A stretch of DNA of 64,000 nucleotides from a virus. Shown one piece after another: positions 3,965 to 61,477 of the stretch. Every line of letters begins with the position of its first letter. Positions within the stretch are counted from its first letter, which is position 1. The notes under the pieces are model-generated. The model was not told where the DNA came from. It searched no databases and was given only the letters and a program-made list of their open reading frames with translations. Position numbers and translations under genes: made by a program. The stretch is taken from IMG/VR virus record IMGVR_UViG_3300035659_000003, positions 1 to 64,000 of that record; one strand, written 5' to 3'.

Positions 3965-4288
3965 TTAGAACAAGCGCAGGGTCAGATAGCCCACGAACGT
4001 GTTCAGCTCGACGCGGAGGAAGGGGACGGGGAGGAACCGGAACTTGTCCGGCCCGATCAGCCGGATACCGCCGCCCAGCTCGACGTCAGCCACGTCCGCG
4101 CCGGACACATCCTCAAGGGAGGGCTTGTTGAAGTAGAGGGTGATGCTGACCGGCCCCAGGTGCAGGGTGGTCTCGACGTCGGGGAGGTCGCTCGTCTCGA
4201 CGTCGACCACGGTGTAGCCCAGGACGCCGACATCGTACCTGGTGTAGTAGTCGCAGTGGCGAGTCTTCTCGATCGCGAACAGCTTCAT
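3965..4288 (-). CDS. beta-rich hypothetical protein, paralogue family
   Basis: AAGGAG RBS; shares the C-terminal repeat. Confidence 0.65.
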   Translation of the reverse strand: MKLFAIEKTRHCDYYTRYDVGVLGYTVVDVETSDLPDVETTLHLGPVSITLYFNKPSLEDVSGADVADVELGGGIRLIGPDKFRFLPVPFLRVELNTFVGYLTLRLF

Positions 4289-4383
4289 AGGTGTCTCCTT
4301 CCCTCAGACCCGATTCTCCGGCCACACGGCGCAAATCCTGTGCCCTGCGTGCCGGAATCGGTATCCGTCTGCCTTCTCCGCTC

Positions 4384-4404
4384 AAAACGGGCTGTCAGGC
4401 CCGC
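4384..4404 (-). terminator. probable intrinsic terminator
   Basis: GCGGGC-CTGACA-GCCCGT hairpin followed by TTT, right after the stop at 4405. Confidence 0.5.
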
Positions 4405-4764
4405 TCACTTCATTCCCTTTTCGATCGGCTGTGGCCTGCCTGGTGGCGGGGCCAGAGGGAACCGATCCTGTGGTAGCTCTTCCTTTGGAACGCTAGCGCA
4501 GATGTCCCCGCAATCTCCATCGCAGGAACCTGCCTCGCCGCAACCGCGTTCATAGCATGTGGTGCAGTTAGTGCTGCCCAAGGGCCGTTGTAGGGGAACG
4601 GGCTCAAACGTATGATCGAACGCGTATTCACACTCATAGCATTTGCACTCGTACGAGCACGTCAGCCGACCGAAGGGGTCGTCGTGCGCGATGCCTATCT
4701 CATACCATTCGCGCAGCGCGCACTCGCCGCAATTCGGGCAGGTGGCGATGTTGCCAAAGCTCAT
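4405..4764 (-). CDS. Cys-rich zinc-ribbon protein
   Basis: CPNCG...CYEC plus a second Cys cluster. Confidence 0.6.
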   Translation of the reverse strand: MSFGNIATCPNCGECALREWYEIGIAHDDPFGRLTCSYECKCYECEYAFDHTFEPVPLQRPLGSTNCTTCYERGCGEAGSCDGDCGDICASVPKEELPQDRFPLAPPPGRPQPIEKGMK

Positions 4765-37667: not shown

Positions 37668-38963
37668 TTACTCGAACGCGAACACAGTGACACGGTCGGC
37701 AGCAAGAAGAGGAGAGGCCGCAATGCCCGTAACGGTTACGAGGGCAGGAATTCCAGCCCCCGCTGCCGCGAACACGACTGAGCCCGCAAACGGCAAGAAC
37801 ACGCCAGCAGTCTCGAGAACCACGATCCCCCAGAAAGCGTCGAAAGGAAGGGGAATCCGCACCTCGCCGAAACCAGCGCCCGCCAGTGCCTCGCCCGCGT
37901 CGGGGATCACGGTCACGCAACAGACCTGCTTCCTGCCTGGGTCTGCACCGCGCCACATGGTTACCTCGTCGAATACGCAGTCCAGAGGAATGACGGTGAC
38001 CGCGACGGTTGCCGGAGTAGCGGGGCCAAGGATATCAAACGTCAGGAGCAAGTCTATGCCCGCAACGAGGCTCTGTGCCGTAACGTTGTTGACCGCGCCG
38101 ATGGCGTCGTTGTCGTTGATGGTTGCCGCGATAAGTGGAGTGAGAACAACGGCAGCAACCGGCGCGCCGGTGGCCTGAGAGCCAATCGGAATATTGGCCG
38201 ACAGTGCAGTTACGTGTGATACGCTCCAGAAGATGTCTACTCCGTTAGCGTGTGGCGCTGCAGCCGTTCCGCAGCGTGCACGCCCGAAGGTCACGCTGGT
38301 GCCTGCAACGTTAAGGACGCGCAGGTATTCCGCGCCGATGAAAACAAGCTCGCCCACAATCACCGGAGTCACGCCGCCGATGCCGCTTTGCACGTAACCG
38401 CGCGCAGGGGTCAGCACGACGGTCAACGGGTTAGTGATGTTGTTGAAGTCGTTATTGGCTGTGTTGTCAGCAGAGTCCAACGTGATGTCGTCCAGCTCGA
38501 AGGTGTCCGTGCCGATCTGGTAGGTATCACCAGGAACAGGAACGCCGGTTCGCGCCGTGCCAGCGACTACGCGCGCCGTCCCCATCGCAAAACGACCAGG
38601 GTCGTCCAGCGGAGGAGACGCCAGAAGGTTAACGGCAAGTGCGGCAGGTTCAATCTTGTCAAGGGCTGTAGCCGCATTGAAGAAGTCATTCGCCATCTTT
38701 GCTCGGCCAGCCGCGTCAGCCGACAGTACATCGTCGGCGAGGTCGTCGGTATCAACCGCCAGGTTATCGATGGCCAAGCTAGTGAGCCCGCCCTTATCGG
38801 GCAAGTCCATCCATACCGCCAGGTTGATGATGATGGTGTCAGGGCTGCCCTCGATAAGGTAGACCGCGTCGGTCAGGGACGGATCATTTATGTAGGTGAC
38901 CTGCCTATAGACGGGCCGCGCCAGGTTCCCCAGTTGAGTCAGGGTCAGTTTAGTAAGTGCCAT
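37668..38963 (-). CDS. head fibre/decoration-like structural protein (start trimmed to MALTKL)
   Basis: Ala/Gly/Thr-rich; carries the E...R..GT...H..G module. Confidence 0.55.
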   Translation of the reverse strand: MALTKLTLTQLGNLARPVYRQVTYINDPSLTDAVYLIEGSPDTIIINLAVWMDLPDKGGLTSLAIDNLAVDTDDLADDVLSADAAGRAKMANDFFNAATALDKIEPAALAVNLLASPPLDDPGRFAMGTARVVAGTARTGVPVPGDTYQIGTDTFELDDITLDSADNTANNDFNNITNPLTVVLTPARGYVQSGIGGVTPVIVGELVFIGAEYLRVLNVAGTSVTFGRARCGTAAAPHANGVDIFWSVSHVTALSANIPIGSQATGAPVAAVVLTPLIAATINDNDAIGAVNNVTAQSLVAGIDLLLTFDILGPATPATVAVTVIPLDCVFDEVTMWRGADPGRKQVCCVTVIPDAGEALAGAGFGEVRIPLPFDAFWGIVVLETAGVFLPFAGSVVFAAAGAGIPALVTVTGIAASPLLAADRVTVFAFE

Positions 38964-38964
38964 A

Positions 38965-39429
38965 TTAGTAAGTCCTCTCGTCGTCGCACAGAATGTAGTC
39001 GAACGCAAGCTCGACCGTGCCCGCAAATGCGCCACCACAGATCACCGCGAAGATAATCGGCTGCTCCGCCGCCACCCGCAAGGCGTTAGTGGTCAACGCG
39101 CCGTAGACGATAGTGTTGTCGGCTGGCGTTGTCGCACCGAGAATCTGGGTGATCAGGCTATTGCCCGCCGCCGCCGCTTCGTCATAAAGCGATGGTGCCA
39201 GAAGGTCGATGCTTGTCAGCCCCGCGAGGCTCTCGCCCAGAATCCTGACATCAACGATGCGGATCGGGACGGTAGGAACCAGGCATGTGGCGCGAACCTC
39301 GCCGTTAATCGGCACGATCTTGACGGGATTGCTGGTGCGGAGCATCTCCTGCCCCTTTCCCAGCTCGTCCACCACGCGCTTGGCAGTGCTGTAAAGAACC
39401 CGTTGTCGCCTAGCTGCTGGGTACGCCAC
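38965..39429 (-). CDS. capsid decoration-like protein, copy 2
   Basis: Tandem paralogue of 39431-39889. Confidence 0.55.
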   Translation of the reverse strand: MAYPAARRQRVLYSTAKRVVDELGKGQEMLRTSNPVKIVPINGEVRATCLVPTVPIRIVDVRILGESLAGLTSIDLLAPSLYDEAAAAGNSLITQILGATTPADNTIVYGALTTNALRVAAEQPIIFAVICGGAFAGTVELAFDYILCDDERTY

Positions 39430-39430
39430 C

Positions 39431-39889
39431 CTAGTAAGTCCTCTCCTCGTCGCAGAGGATGTAGTCTACCTGCACCTCGACGGAACCCGTGGCCGCGCCT
39501 GCAGTTATCACAACAAGATTGATGGGCTGCTCCGCCGCTACCCTATTAGCCAACGGAAGAACCGCGCCGTAGACTAGGGTGTCGTCCGCCGCTGCTGCCA
39601 ACTCTGTGATCAAACGGTTACCCGCACCTGCTGCAGAATCATAGAGAGCCGGAGCTAGGACGTTGATGCTGGTAAGGTTGGCGACGCTCTCGCCCATAAC
39701 CTTGACGTCAACAATGCGAACAGGAACGGTAGGAATGCCCACGATCGCGCGGATCGTGCTTGCGCCCGCCTGAGTAATCTTAACCGGCCCAAATGTGCGC
39801 AGGGCCTCCTGACCCTTACCGAGTTCGTCGCGGACGCGCTTTGCGGTGCTATAAAGAACACGCTGTCTTCGTGCTGCTGGGTACGCCAT
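39431..39889 (-). CDS. capsid decoration-like protein, copy 1
   Basis: Follows the MCP; first 19 aa identical to copy 2. Confidence 0.55.
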   Translation of the reverse strand: MAYPAARRQRVLYSTAKRVRDELGKGQEALRTFGPVKITQAGASTIRAIVGIPTVPVRIVDVKVMGESVANLTSINVLAPALYDSAAGAGNRLITELAAAADDTLVYGAVLPLANRVAAEQPINLVVITAGAATGSVEVQVDYILCDEERTY

Positions 39890-39906
39890 CGTCACTATTC
39901 CTCTCT

Positions 39907-40067
39907 GGGAGGGGGGCCATGGGACTCCCCGCCTATGCTTTTCGCCTCTTCCCGTGTGAGCGCCAGGGCCGGAGAAAGGAGGCGAACTCCGGCCTGCGCC
40001 ATTTCAGCTTTCGCTGTCGTCCTTTTAACCAAGGAAGGGGGCTAGGCGGATGCCGTAACCCCGTCCC
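39907..40067 (-). ncRNA. candidate structured RNA between the MCP and decoration genes
   Basis: Nested helices, a GAAA tetraloop and an 8-bp stem with an anti-SD loop. Confidence 0.45.
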
Positions 40068-40085
40068 TTACTATGTTGTCCTTGT

Positions 40086-41507
40086 TTACGTCAGGTTGAC
40101 GCCGTCGCTCAAGTCGACGATCTTCGCCTGCTTCCTGAAGTCCATGCAGCGGAGGTTGAAGGCGGTAAGGTAGATGGCCTTGATGCCGAGCATGTTGTTC
40201 TGGAGGTAGTCACGGGATTCCATATACTGGGTGGTGAAGAGAACCGGAATCTCGAGGAACCGAGTGTCCATCACGTACACGTTCGGGCCGCGCTTCTCGT
40301 CACCGGCAGCCGCCAACTGGTAGCTAGTCGGGGTATCGAAGTCGTGGAAGACTGGGATGCCCTTGTAGGTTGCCACCTGGAAGCCGGTCGGGTAACCCTT
40401 CAGCGTGCCTTCGCCGCCGAGCTTGACCTGGAACTCGCCTTCACCGATGAAGTGCTGGTTGGCCTGGAGAATGGTTCCCAGTCGGGTCAACTGCTCGATG
40501 CCGGTTGTGACTAGGTCGGGCTCGCCGCCGTTCCGACGTACCCTGTCAATGGCCTGGTCTAGCAGGACAGTGCTCAGGTGCCGGAGTGGAGCCGCTGCGG
40601 AAGCAGCCTCAAACACGTTGCCTGCGTTCCAGGCCAGGGCATCGCGGTCGGCAAGAACGAGGGAGCCGTAGCCCGCAACTTCGGCGTTGGTGAACGTCGC
40701 GCCGTTGCGGATACGGGCCGTCTGGTCGACCACGTCGTCGAGGCTGTAGGAAGCGCCGCGATCGCGTGCGTAGAGGATGCGGTCGGTTGTGGTGATCTGG
40801 TCAAACGTGGCCACCGTGTCGGAAGTGATGCCGGTGCAGATGATGTCCTGTGCCTGACCTGCCTCGCGGAACGTGTCGCCCACGTTCAGCCACGAGGTGT
40901 CGATCAAGGTGACCGCGCCTGCAGGAGCAGCGCCTAGCACGATGCGCTGGTCACTAGATGCCAGAAGCATCTGGTTGAGGCGCTTCGTGTGGTCGATCAT
41001 CGCAGTCTCCTGCGCTACCGCCAGGGCGTCCCCGATACCACCCTCCAGGGTGCCCAGGAACTGTGCCAGAGCGGAAACGCCGATGGACGTCACGATGAAT
41101 CTCGGCTGGATGTAGACGGTCTGCAGGTCAGGGCTGTCGATGTCCGGCAGGGCCGCGACTTCCGTCACGGGCCGAGTCGAACGGTTACGACCAGACCGAA
41201 TCCTGTAACCTGTGGTTGGCCCCCACGCCACCTTTCGGAGCAGGTTGAACACCCTGGTCTGGGAGTTCAAACTATCCCAGACTTTGGCTCCAAAAGTATT
41301 GACAAAAAAGTCACCCGCAATGAATGCATCGGCAGGCGGGGACGAGGTGATGTCCTTCTGGAGGAGGCCGGAGCCTGGGCCGAAGTAGCCGTAGCGGAGT
41401 TCGCGGGGACTAGAGCCACCAGGAACGCGCTGCAGCCAGTCGGCTAGAGTTCTCGGACTCCAGTTGATGGCCTTGTTTAGTTGGCTGTTGCGGTAAGAGC
41501 TTCCCAT
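40086..41507 (-). CDS. major capsid protein (HK97 fold)
   Basis: Size; follows an acidic scaffold; NGGEPDLV.T, TYKGIPV and C-terminal LRC.DFRKQAKI.DL. Confidence 0.85.
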   Translation of the reverse strand: MGSSYRNSQLNKAINWSPRTLADWLQRVPGGSSPRELRYGYFGPGSGLLQKDITSSPPADAFIAGDFFVNTFGAKVWDSLNSQTRVFNLLRKVAWGPTTGYRIRSGRNRSTRPVTEVAALPDIDSPDLQTVYIQPRFIVTSIGVSALAQFLGTLEGGIGDALAVAQETAMIDHTKRLNQMLLASSDQRIVLGAAPAGAVTLIDTSWLNVGDTFREAGQAQDIICTGITSDTVATFDQITTTDRILYARDRGASYSLDDVVDQTARIRNGATFTNAEVAGYGSLVLADRDALAWNAGNVFEAASAAAPLRHLSTVLLDQAIDRVRRNGGEPDLVTTGIEQLTRLGTILQANQHFIGEGEFQVKLGGEGTLKGYPTGFQVATYKGIPVFHDFDTPTSYQLAAAGDEKRGPNVYVMDTRFLEIPVLFTTQYMESRDYLQNNMLGIKAIYLTAFNLRCMDFRKQAKIVDLSDGVNLT

Positions 41508-41525
41508 CGTGGTATCGCCCCTCCC

Positions 41526-42287
41526 CTAGATGATCGAATCCGGCAGATCACCGACCGCAACGCGGAAGCGGTTGATCTCCTGGAAACTCATGCCGCGAGC
41601 CCGATCTTCCAGCTCGCCCAGGTCAGGCGTGGGCTCCGACGGGGTCTTCCCCACGGTCGGGCCAACGGCCTTCTTGATGATGCCCGCCGAAACGAGAGCG
41701 GCCTTGATCTCTGCATTCTCGTCGAAGAGCTTCTTGAGGGTCGGCCCCATCTTGCTCTTCGGGATGATTGTGGCGTCGGCAGGCCAGTCCTTGGTGTCGG
41801 GAGTGATGGGAGGGTTACCTGGAACGTCCGAGTCCTTCTCGCCGAAATTGCTAGAGGCGTCGTCCTTGTCCACCTTGGCCTTGCGGGCCATACTGACCAG
41901 GCCAGGCACGTTCTTGGTGTCCTCTTCCGAACCGCTATAGCTCTCCGGCGACCCTAGATCGCTGTCGCCGTAGGGACTAAAGTCGGACTCGGTTGCGGAC
42001 TCGCCCAACTCGAACTCGTCCTCTTCGGGGGCCTCTTCGTCCTCCTCGGAGTCTTCGTCGCTGTCGAGCGCCATGACATGCTTGGTCAGGGCGGACATGG
42101 AGCGGGTAAGGTCAAGCATCAGCGTTGCCTGCTCGCGCAGGGCCTTGCTGAGCGAACTCACCTTGGTCTCTAGCGACTCAGCGGAATCCTCGTCGTCGTC
42201 CCCCTCGTCCTCGGACAGGAGAGACTCCAGGCTTTCCTCGTCATCGCCCTCGGGATTGTCTGCCAGACGTAGAAGTCTCTTATTCAT
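41526..42287 (-). CDS. capsid scaffolding protein
   Basis: Highly acidic with coiled coils, directly upstream of the MCP. Confidence 0.65.
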   Translation of the reverse strand: MNKRLLRLADNPEGDDEESLESLLSEDEGDDDEDSAESLETKVSSLSKALREQATLMLDLTRSMSALTKHVMALDSDEDSEEDEEAPEEDEFELGESATESDFSPYGDSDLGSPESYSGSEEDTKNVPGLVSMARKAKVDKDDASSNFGEKDSDVPGNPPITPDTKDWPADATIIPKSKMGPTLKKLFDENAEIKAALVSAGIIKKAVGPTVGKTPSEPTPDLGELEDRARGMSFQEINRFRVAVGDLPDSII

Positions 42288-61443: not shown

Positions 61444-61477
61444 CTTACTATGACGATCCGGCGGGGTCTTCGGTCAC
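61444..61477 (-). promoter_or_regulatory. ECF-type promoter-like element GTGACC-N16-CGTCATAGTAAG
   Basis: Matches 752-785; precedes the RAMA gene RBS. Confidence 0.6.

Follow-up and report, generated by a model that had tools for sequence, protein, structure and literature searches.

The pseudoknot in the leader of T4 gene 32 is an autogenous translational operator, and the preQ1-I/II, SAM-II/V and guanidine-III riboswitches are built on a compact H-type pseudoknot with conserved loop bases, the 3′ strand of which lies at or near the translation-initiation region. In the pistol ribozyme a hairpin loop pairs with a downstream strand and another hairpin comes next, and in small RNAs of the RsaE/RoxS type C-rich loops mask ribosome-binding sites. 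To our knowledge, only a handful of translational operators have been described for the structural genes of double-stranded DNA phages, and little is understood of how the dose of capsid accessory proteins is matched to that of the major capsid protein. Pistol ribozymes are described as often phage-associated (PMC4604425), and a comparative-genomics study of IMG/VR describes 10,006 candidate structured RNAs, some of them beside capsid genes (PMC10690425).

Here we analyse a locus in which the intergenic region after a phage capsid gene contains a real structured RNA of ~120 nt, conserved among relatives and lying on the sense strand. The window, i.e. the whole stretch of 64,000 nucleotides that was analysed, is part of a virus record of 109,910 bp with direct terminal repeats. 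The genes around the element all lie on the minus strand, as do the element's own features, so that coordinates below are minus-strand coordinates of the window unless a relative is named. The upstream neighbour of the element is the major capsid protein (MCP) gene (40086..41507, an ORF of 473 aa), which matches PHROG phrog_24667, major head protein (E 1.9e-10), and has homologues of 56–97% identity in more than 40 metagenomic or viral contigs. The downstream neighbour is gene A (39431..39889, 152 aa), followed by gene B (38965..39429, 154 aa, 67% identity to gene A) and then by a gene of ~225–290 aa. Between the MCP stop (40088-40086) and the gene A ATG (39889-39887) lies a 196-nt gap. The gene A/gene B tandem pair recurs in relatives, to which the gene A N-terminus MAYPAA is also common; gene A and gene B share an invariant GKG motif.

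An earlier note on this DNA, made from the sequence alone, had proposed a structured RNA after the capsid gene, and every string that it listed (the MCP stop, the stems and loops, GAGGCGAA, CATAGTAAG and an ORF at 40002-39895) is present at its position on the minus strand. Folding energy did not set the region apart: the z-score was −1.14 for the gap (201 nt; 26 of 200 dinucleotide shuffles fold as well), −1.87 for the hairpin alone and +1.58 for the 120-nt core, and the energies of the relatives were likewise not beyond their shuffled controls. Since the note had itself named a folding energy no better than that of shuffled controls as a reason to doubt the structure, the case for structure was rested on relatives. 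A search with Rfam 15 at a permissive threshold, which the note had suggested, placed no family on the element at E ≤10, either in the region 38000-42000 of the window or in seven relatives, and self-cleaving ribozymes (pistol, hatchet, twister-sister, HDV-like, hammerhead) were among the families that gave no match on it. The sole Rfam match near the element is to Clostridiales-2 at 4412-4468 of the relative L007, upstream of the core, with 22 bits against a threshold of 58.6. We also observed a weak match to the narK RNA at 38101-38168 of the window (24 bits against a threshold of 43.2, E 0.15), which falls within a coding region and is probably due to chance.

Scans based on the MCP recovered homologues at 49–100% identity from 11 IMG/VR loci and 33 metagenome loci, and no match was found among INPHARED phage records by DNA or by protein. 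We read the DNA after each MCP stop and, by comparison with ~20 related uncultured-phage contigs, found the element in two groups: a window clade (the window, L052, L022, L021 and L038 and, more distantly, L007 and L010) and a distant clade with an MCP identity of roughly 50–63% (L034, L035, L037, L041, L044, L045, L048, L051 and L053). Since these sequences are drawn from few lineages, the number of independent events is small. One of the relatives, the 54-kb contig L007, carries at least 16 tRNA genes at 1-2030, upstream of the head-gene block. A profile scan of IMG/VR with gene A added only L059, a pattern scan of IMG/VR for the P3 module described below gave five matches, all in relatives at the same syntenic position, and scans of IMG/VR for two motifs returned only two known relatives and reverse-strand chance matches to ribosome-binding sites. 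A scan of genome contigs gave three matches, two of which received no score from the covariance model and the third of which (L056) received 15.4 bits; as this is far below the 31–143 bits of family members, we treated these matches as chance.

Only the nine sequences of the distant clade went into the covariance model, which contains the helices P1, P2 and P3 without pseudoknots. It matches the element of the window at 39890-40003 on the minus strand (32.9 bits, E ~1e-7) as well as L052, L021, L022, L038, L007 and L010, and it detects partial forms in L028, L005, L003 and L059. The element is single-copy, with one match to the model in the 110-kb phage genome. Its 5′ part, module A (39959..40000), is a hairpin that appears in the MFE and centroid folds of the window and in RNAalifold, and consists of an outer stem P1 (GGCGC 40000-39996 with GCGCU 39963-39959) and an 8-bp inner stem P2 (GGCCGGAG 39994-39987 with CTCCGGCC, in RNA letters CUCCGGCC, 39974-39967). 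Its 3′ part is the hairpin P3 (39913..39930), with GGGG 39930-39927 paired to CCCC 39916-39913, which is conserved and had not been singled out by the earlier note.

These three helices are supported by base-pair exchanges. In the distant clade alone 96% of pairs are formed, nine pairs show double changes and none of 500 shuffles does as well. In an alignment of 16 sequences, which was fitted to the nested helices and therefore favours them, 92% of the cells are paired as compared with 36–57% when the partners are slid, a figure again reached by 0 of 500 shuffles, and double changes are found in 16 pairs. Double compensatory changes affect five of the six P2 pairs and seven of the ten P1 pairs in this set, and RNAalifold independently recovers P1, P2 and P3. 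In 17 sequences one position of the P3 stem is occupied by AU, GC, GU, CG and UA, and two others exchange GC for AU and CG for AU. G·U pairs are frequent, e.g. in 12 of 16 sequences at the end of P1, and this points to the coding strand as the folded one. Taken with the model built from one clade and finding the element in the other, the covariation and conservation bear out the earlier note's central claim of a structured RNA at this site.

P2 closes a 12-nt loop, UUCGCCUCCUUU (39986-39975), for which the consensus across relatives is GUUUnGCCYCCUUUC. The earlier note had observed that the loop could also pair with GAGGCGAA (39948-39941), and this pairing, PK1, is backed by covariation. Its 3′ strand, which can be extended to GGGAAGAGGCGAA (39941..39953), is a purine tract located 20–30 nt downstream of the loop, which follows module A after a joiner of 10–15 nt; it abuts P3 in relatives and lies 10 nt before P3 in the window. 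In all sequences scored the loop–tract duplex is worth between −12.5 and −18.6 kcal/mol, the value for the window being −17.0 kcal/mol; L035 is not counted among them since its partner lies beyond a 36-nt insertion, outside the search span. The central pair, which did not enter the model because PK1 is absent from it, is CG in nine sequences, UA in four and UG in two; C-G is the form of the distant clade, U·G that of L007 and U-A that of the window clade.

The same comparison changes how the loop itself is to be understood. The earlier note had taken it for an anti-Shine-Dalgarno sequence resembling the 3′ end of 16S rRNA. In 9 of 16 members the loop reads GCCCCCUUU, with CCCCC and not CCUCC, while the genes there use GGAG-type ribosome-binding sites and an AAGGGGG-type site occurs only once in 29 kb; the resemblance to 16S rRNA is therefore incidental. 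The ribosome-binding site of the capsid gene itself does not covary with the loop, and pairing between the two is not supported. Given the CCCCC loops, a partner tract that covaries and an MCP site that does not, the anti-Shine-Dalgarno likeness is best explained as a by-product of an internal pyrimidine–purine helix. A general caution follows, namely that the striking 16S-like loop of one genome turned out to be one strand of an internal helix once relatives were compared.

These observations also bear on the suggestion that the region encodes a stand-alone or processed small RNA acting in trans, the C-rich loops of which (CCUCCUUU in module A, UCCCAU in P3) would mask ribosome-binding sites of the phage or its host. 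The window-clade loop is a perfect complement of AAAGGAGG-type sites, which the phage often uses, and a 9-mer common to a promoter class lies at the 5′ edge. Against this, the loop varies in members whose genes keep GGAG-type sites, its cis partner changes along with it, and the capsid gene's site does not follow. There is no terminator after P3, and a scan of 38800-41700 found no sigma-70-like promoter or terminator near the element. The 9-mer, CATAGTAAG (40067..40075), has three exact minus-strand copies in the window and aligns with those at 752 and 61444 at equal spacing from a GTnA-C box. The spacing of the class-2 promoter copies is kept, but CAAC replaces CGTC, and in L021, L022 and L038 only AACATAG of the 9-mer is retained, which makes it a doubtful promoter −10. 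Taken together, we regard a trans-acting RNA as very unlikely.

The promoter-like boxes at 752-785 and 61444-61477 (minus strand) are near-identical (GTGACCG..N..CGTCATAGTAAG) and stand directly before ribosome-binding sites. A repeated promoter or DNA site was considered as an identity for the element as well and was rejected, as the two loop motifs, that of module A and that of P3, are each unique in the window and the covariance model matches the genome once only. A short CA-rich motif (GACAACA / CCAACAAC, window 40076-40082, minus strand) lies immediately behind the MCP stop, 5′ of the structured core, and recurs in the first 10–30 nt after the MCP stop in L007, L053, L044, L045 and L048.

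Not all of the additional features proposed for the gap withstood comparison. The MFE fold of the window gap does give the nested helices of the earlier note, but the outer ones find no comparative support: CCGCCTA 40049-40043 and TAGGCGG 39935-39929, present in the window, are reduced to CCGCC/GGCGG in L021 with no covariation, and the CUUCC/GGAAG helix is absent from that relative. UAGGCGG moreover overlaps the P3 stem by two bases and thus competes with it for two G residues. The hairpin with a GNRA tetraloop, CAGC-GAAA-GCUG (P0, 40005..40016), is part of the MFE fold and is conserved only in near-identical relatives; L021 keeps its stem but has GAAUA as the loop, L007 and L010 have at this position an analogue whose loop is AAUA, and the distant clade has none. 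We treat P0 as an accessory hairpin.

A further reading offered by the earlier note was that the 35-codon uORF at 40002-39895 is translated into a small protein. It is present in the window and in the near-identical L052 and L022. However, its ATG is ACG in L021 (87% capsid identity), L052 has lost the stop so that the frame continues for 140 codons, and the conserved motifs fall into different frames in L007. No ribosome-binding site precedes the ORF, and conservation tracks base-pairing and not codons. We therefore consider translation of this ORF extremely improbable. An extension of the capsid protein by frameshifting or read-through was likewise rejected, as each of the two alternative frames meets a stop within 20 codons of the end of the capsid gene, and so was a group I intron remnant, as both flanking genes are intact and no intron model matches.

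The 10-nt loop of P3, AGUCCCAUGG (39926-39917), is nearly invariant, with the consensus AGUCCCAUnG. Its CCAU (39922-39919) is predicted to pair with an AUGG downstream, forming a second pseudoknot, PK2. In the window this AUGG (39886..39889) is the gene A start codon plus one base. The partners are CCAU and AUGG across 17 sequences with the exception of L035, where both have changed, to UCAU and AUGA, and P3 and PK2 together are 90% paired in this set. PK2 comprises four invariant pairs and one flanking G-C pair; 9 of 17 sequences have a mismatch at the pair next to it. PK2 is thus plausible yet thinly supported, since the compensatory event is a single one and a neighbouring pair is often mismatched.

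The position of the AUGG partner is constrained. It always follows P3 by 13–25 nt and either is the start codon or has the ribosome-binding site directly after it. In relatives P3 is followed by an A/U-rich linker or a small hairpin, P4, and then by YWAUGGUG, and in clades other than that of the window the AUGG is 2 nt upstream of the ribosome-binding site; L028 has ~40 nt between it and the start codon. In the window clade, in which AUGG is the start codon of gene A, P4 (CCUC-CCAGA-GAGG, 39900..39912) pairs the ribosome-binding site, GAGAGG, part of which forms its 3′ strand. This optional hairpin is a putative one, read from the window sequence and the L038 fold, and has positional equivalents in L003 and L005, which differ by one compensatory change, and in L010 and L059. 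The window-clade arrangement looks like a deletion between two AUGG repeats of the other clades. Where AUGGUG lies upstream of the ribosome-binding site (L034, L041, L035, L003, L005, L044, L045 and L010), it opens mini-frames of 2–4 codons, e.g. AUG GUG UAG/UAA, ending in a stop that overlaps the gene A ribosome-binding site; the frame opened by the upstream AUG is longer in L048 and L053, at ~30 codons. Such mini-frames could be a coupling device of the start–stop style or a coincidence.

We next consider the gene that follows. Gene A has no Pfam or PHROG match, and gene B too is without a Pfam or PHROG family. The AlphaFold2 model of gene A is a jelly-roll (pLDDT 78) with a basic N-terminal arm of low confidence, and its best match in the PDB is the capsid chain 7eel_H of cyanophage Pam1 (E 3.6e-4, TM 0.51), with further matches to the KHP40 cement protein and a GP4 capsid chain at a TM of about 0.5. 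Jelly-roll cement proteins are described for BPP-1 and GP4 (PMC3863775, PMC9698820). On the strength of this model, gene A probably encodes a jelly-roll cement or decoration protein of the capsid.

The junction between the MCP and cement genes is also a hot spot for free-standing genes resembling homing endonucleases, LAGLIDADG-like and others. Such a gene lies between MCP and element in L038 (910-1494), its reading frame running into P1/P2; between P3 and gene A in L022 (about 4066-4715); directly after the element's ribosome-binding site in L037 (4148-4516) and L041 (1342-1752); between gene A and gene B in L021 (4592-5080); and just after the MCP stop in L001 and L008. In L037 and L041 the inserted gene takes over the ribosome-binding site of the element. 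As insertions separate the element from one neighbour or the other in L022 and L038, strict adjacency to MCP or to gene A is not required.

Because the partner of the 16S-like loop lies close by within the element itself, this RNA is most likely a translation-controlling leader and not a mimic of the ribosome, and because the next gene plausibly encodes a cement or decoration protein, an element that tunes translation in cis is the best reading. We put the probability that it is a cis-acting translational leader, folded across the translation start region of the first gene downstream of MCP, at roughly 0.5. The module A loop pairs with the downstream purine tract to give PK1, and CCAU of the P3 loop would pair with the downstream AUGG to give PK2. 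In most relatives the AUGG immediately precedes the ribosome-binding site; in the window clade PK2 would cover the start codon of gene A, and P4 would pair the ribosome-binding site as well. Folded in this manner, the leader would hide the region where translation of this first gene starts and could thereby set, or switch, the amount of the jelly-roll cement-like protein relative to capsid protein, possibly with the involvement of a protein bound to the conserved loops. Of the earlier note's idea of a cis switch for capsid:decoration stoichiometry, the conserved cis RNA and the plausible cement gene thus hold; PK2, an influence on translation and any partner, be it a protein or a ligand, are what we infer.

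Module A, with or without the pseudoknot, might instead be an element of the capsid mRNA 3′ end, i.e. a terminator, attenuator or exonuclease block, so that capsid transcripts would be abundant and stable and transcription would reach the cement genes less often. Where module A is lacking, relatives have a plain GC-rich hairpin in its place (L006, L039, L028, L049 and L050), in some cases with a U tract, and L003, L005, L028 and L059 combine a simple hairpin with the P3 module. In the low-GC relative L028 (2356-2447, 38% GC in the match) the P3 loop and AUGG are kept, and module A is replaced by a canonical U-tailed terminator hairpin. In addition, L022, L037 and L041 keep the element beside the capsid gene despite an endonuclease insertion downstream. 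However, no U tract comes after P1/P2, where the window has CACACGGG and the distant clade CCCUU plus an A-rich stretch, and a scan for a GC-rich hairpin with a U tract found no intrinsic terminator at the element. In L038 it is between capsid gene and element that the endonuclease gene lies, and the sequence-specific loops are left unexplained by a 3′-end role. PK1 covaries and needs sequence transcribed after the hairpin, so that it is the read-through RNA that is under selection. We consider a 3′-end element possible but doubtful as an account of the whole. Since module A sits where relatives carry a terminator-like hairpin, part of the element may serve the capsid mRNA 3′ end, and this role and that of a leader could coexist.

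The number of invariant unpaired nucleotides (GUUU..CCUUUC in the module A loop and AGUCCCAU) raises the question of whether the element is a ligand-sensing riboswitch of a new class or a self-cleaving or processing RNA, with the pseudoknots and invariant loop bases as binding or catalytic core. Two pseudoknots with a 3′ strand at the initiation region fit such a core, and the topology recalls pistol ribozymes and pseudoknot riboswitches. Yet the Rfam searches of the window and seven relatives returned no family on the element, module A is dispensable in some relatives, and why a metabolite should control a capsid accessory gene is not obvious; we rate this rather improbable. A more speculative proposal, to which we assign a similarly low likelihood, is that the leader represents a new class of riboregulator that imitates a translation-initiation complex internally, with a switchable two-pseudoknot core gating the cement protein. 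The loop CCUCCUUU or CCCCCUUU would then play the anti-Shine-Dalgarno towards the purine tract, the ..CAU.. loop would play the initiator anticodon towards AUG, and the core would be sensed by a protein or ligand or might possibly be catalytic.

The cis-acting leader remains the preferred reading, and several known systems bear comparison with it. With RsaE/RoxS-type small RNAs and the 3′ tail of 16S rRNA the element shares the anti-Shine-Dalgarno core CCUCCUUU of the window-clade loop and the UCCC of the P3 loop. It differs in that the central U is C in most members, in that both loops have covarying or invariant cis partners, and in that there is neither a terminator nor an Rfam match. Similarly to the pistol ribozyme, a hairpin loop pairs with a downstream strand and a second hairpin follows, but no Rfam match was obtained at E ≤10, and neither the enclosing P2 helix of pistol nor its conserved nucleotides were found. 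As in PMC10690425, so far as its candidates are described, this is a comparative-genomics RNA motif in uncultured phage contigs. The evidence for structure in the aligned sequences is solid, and the element appears to be a new RNA family of a known kind, which may or may not be among the 10,006.

With the pseudoknot riboswitches the element has in common the H-type pseudoknot, conserved loop bases and a 3′ strand, here that of the putative PK2, at or beside the initiation region. Set against pseudoknots that hide the ribosome-binding site, PK2 would engage the start codon in the window clade and lies 2 nt upstream of the site elsewhere, with one compensatory change; furthermore, the element is larger and bipartite, has no Rfam match, and stands in a gene context that suggests no ligand. 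The T4 gene 32 leader likewise is a pseudoknotted phage mRNA leader, single-copy and directly upstream of the ribosome-binding site of one gene; in the present element there is covariation in P1, P2, P3 and PK1, and the partner strand of PK2 abuts the ribosome-binding site or start codon. This likeness is one of structure, and it has its limits: there are two pseudoknots here, the gene is one for a capsid accessory protein, and in the window clade PK2 would pair the start codon itself. Compact, single-copy and supported by covariation, the element is, by analogy with the gene 32 leader, a candidate operator for a phage structural gene, the two pseudoknots of which are directly testable.
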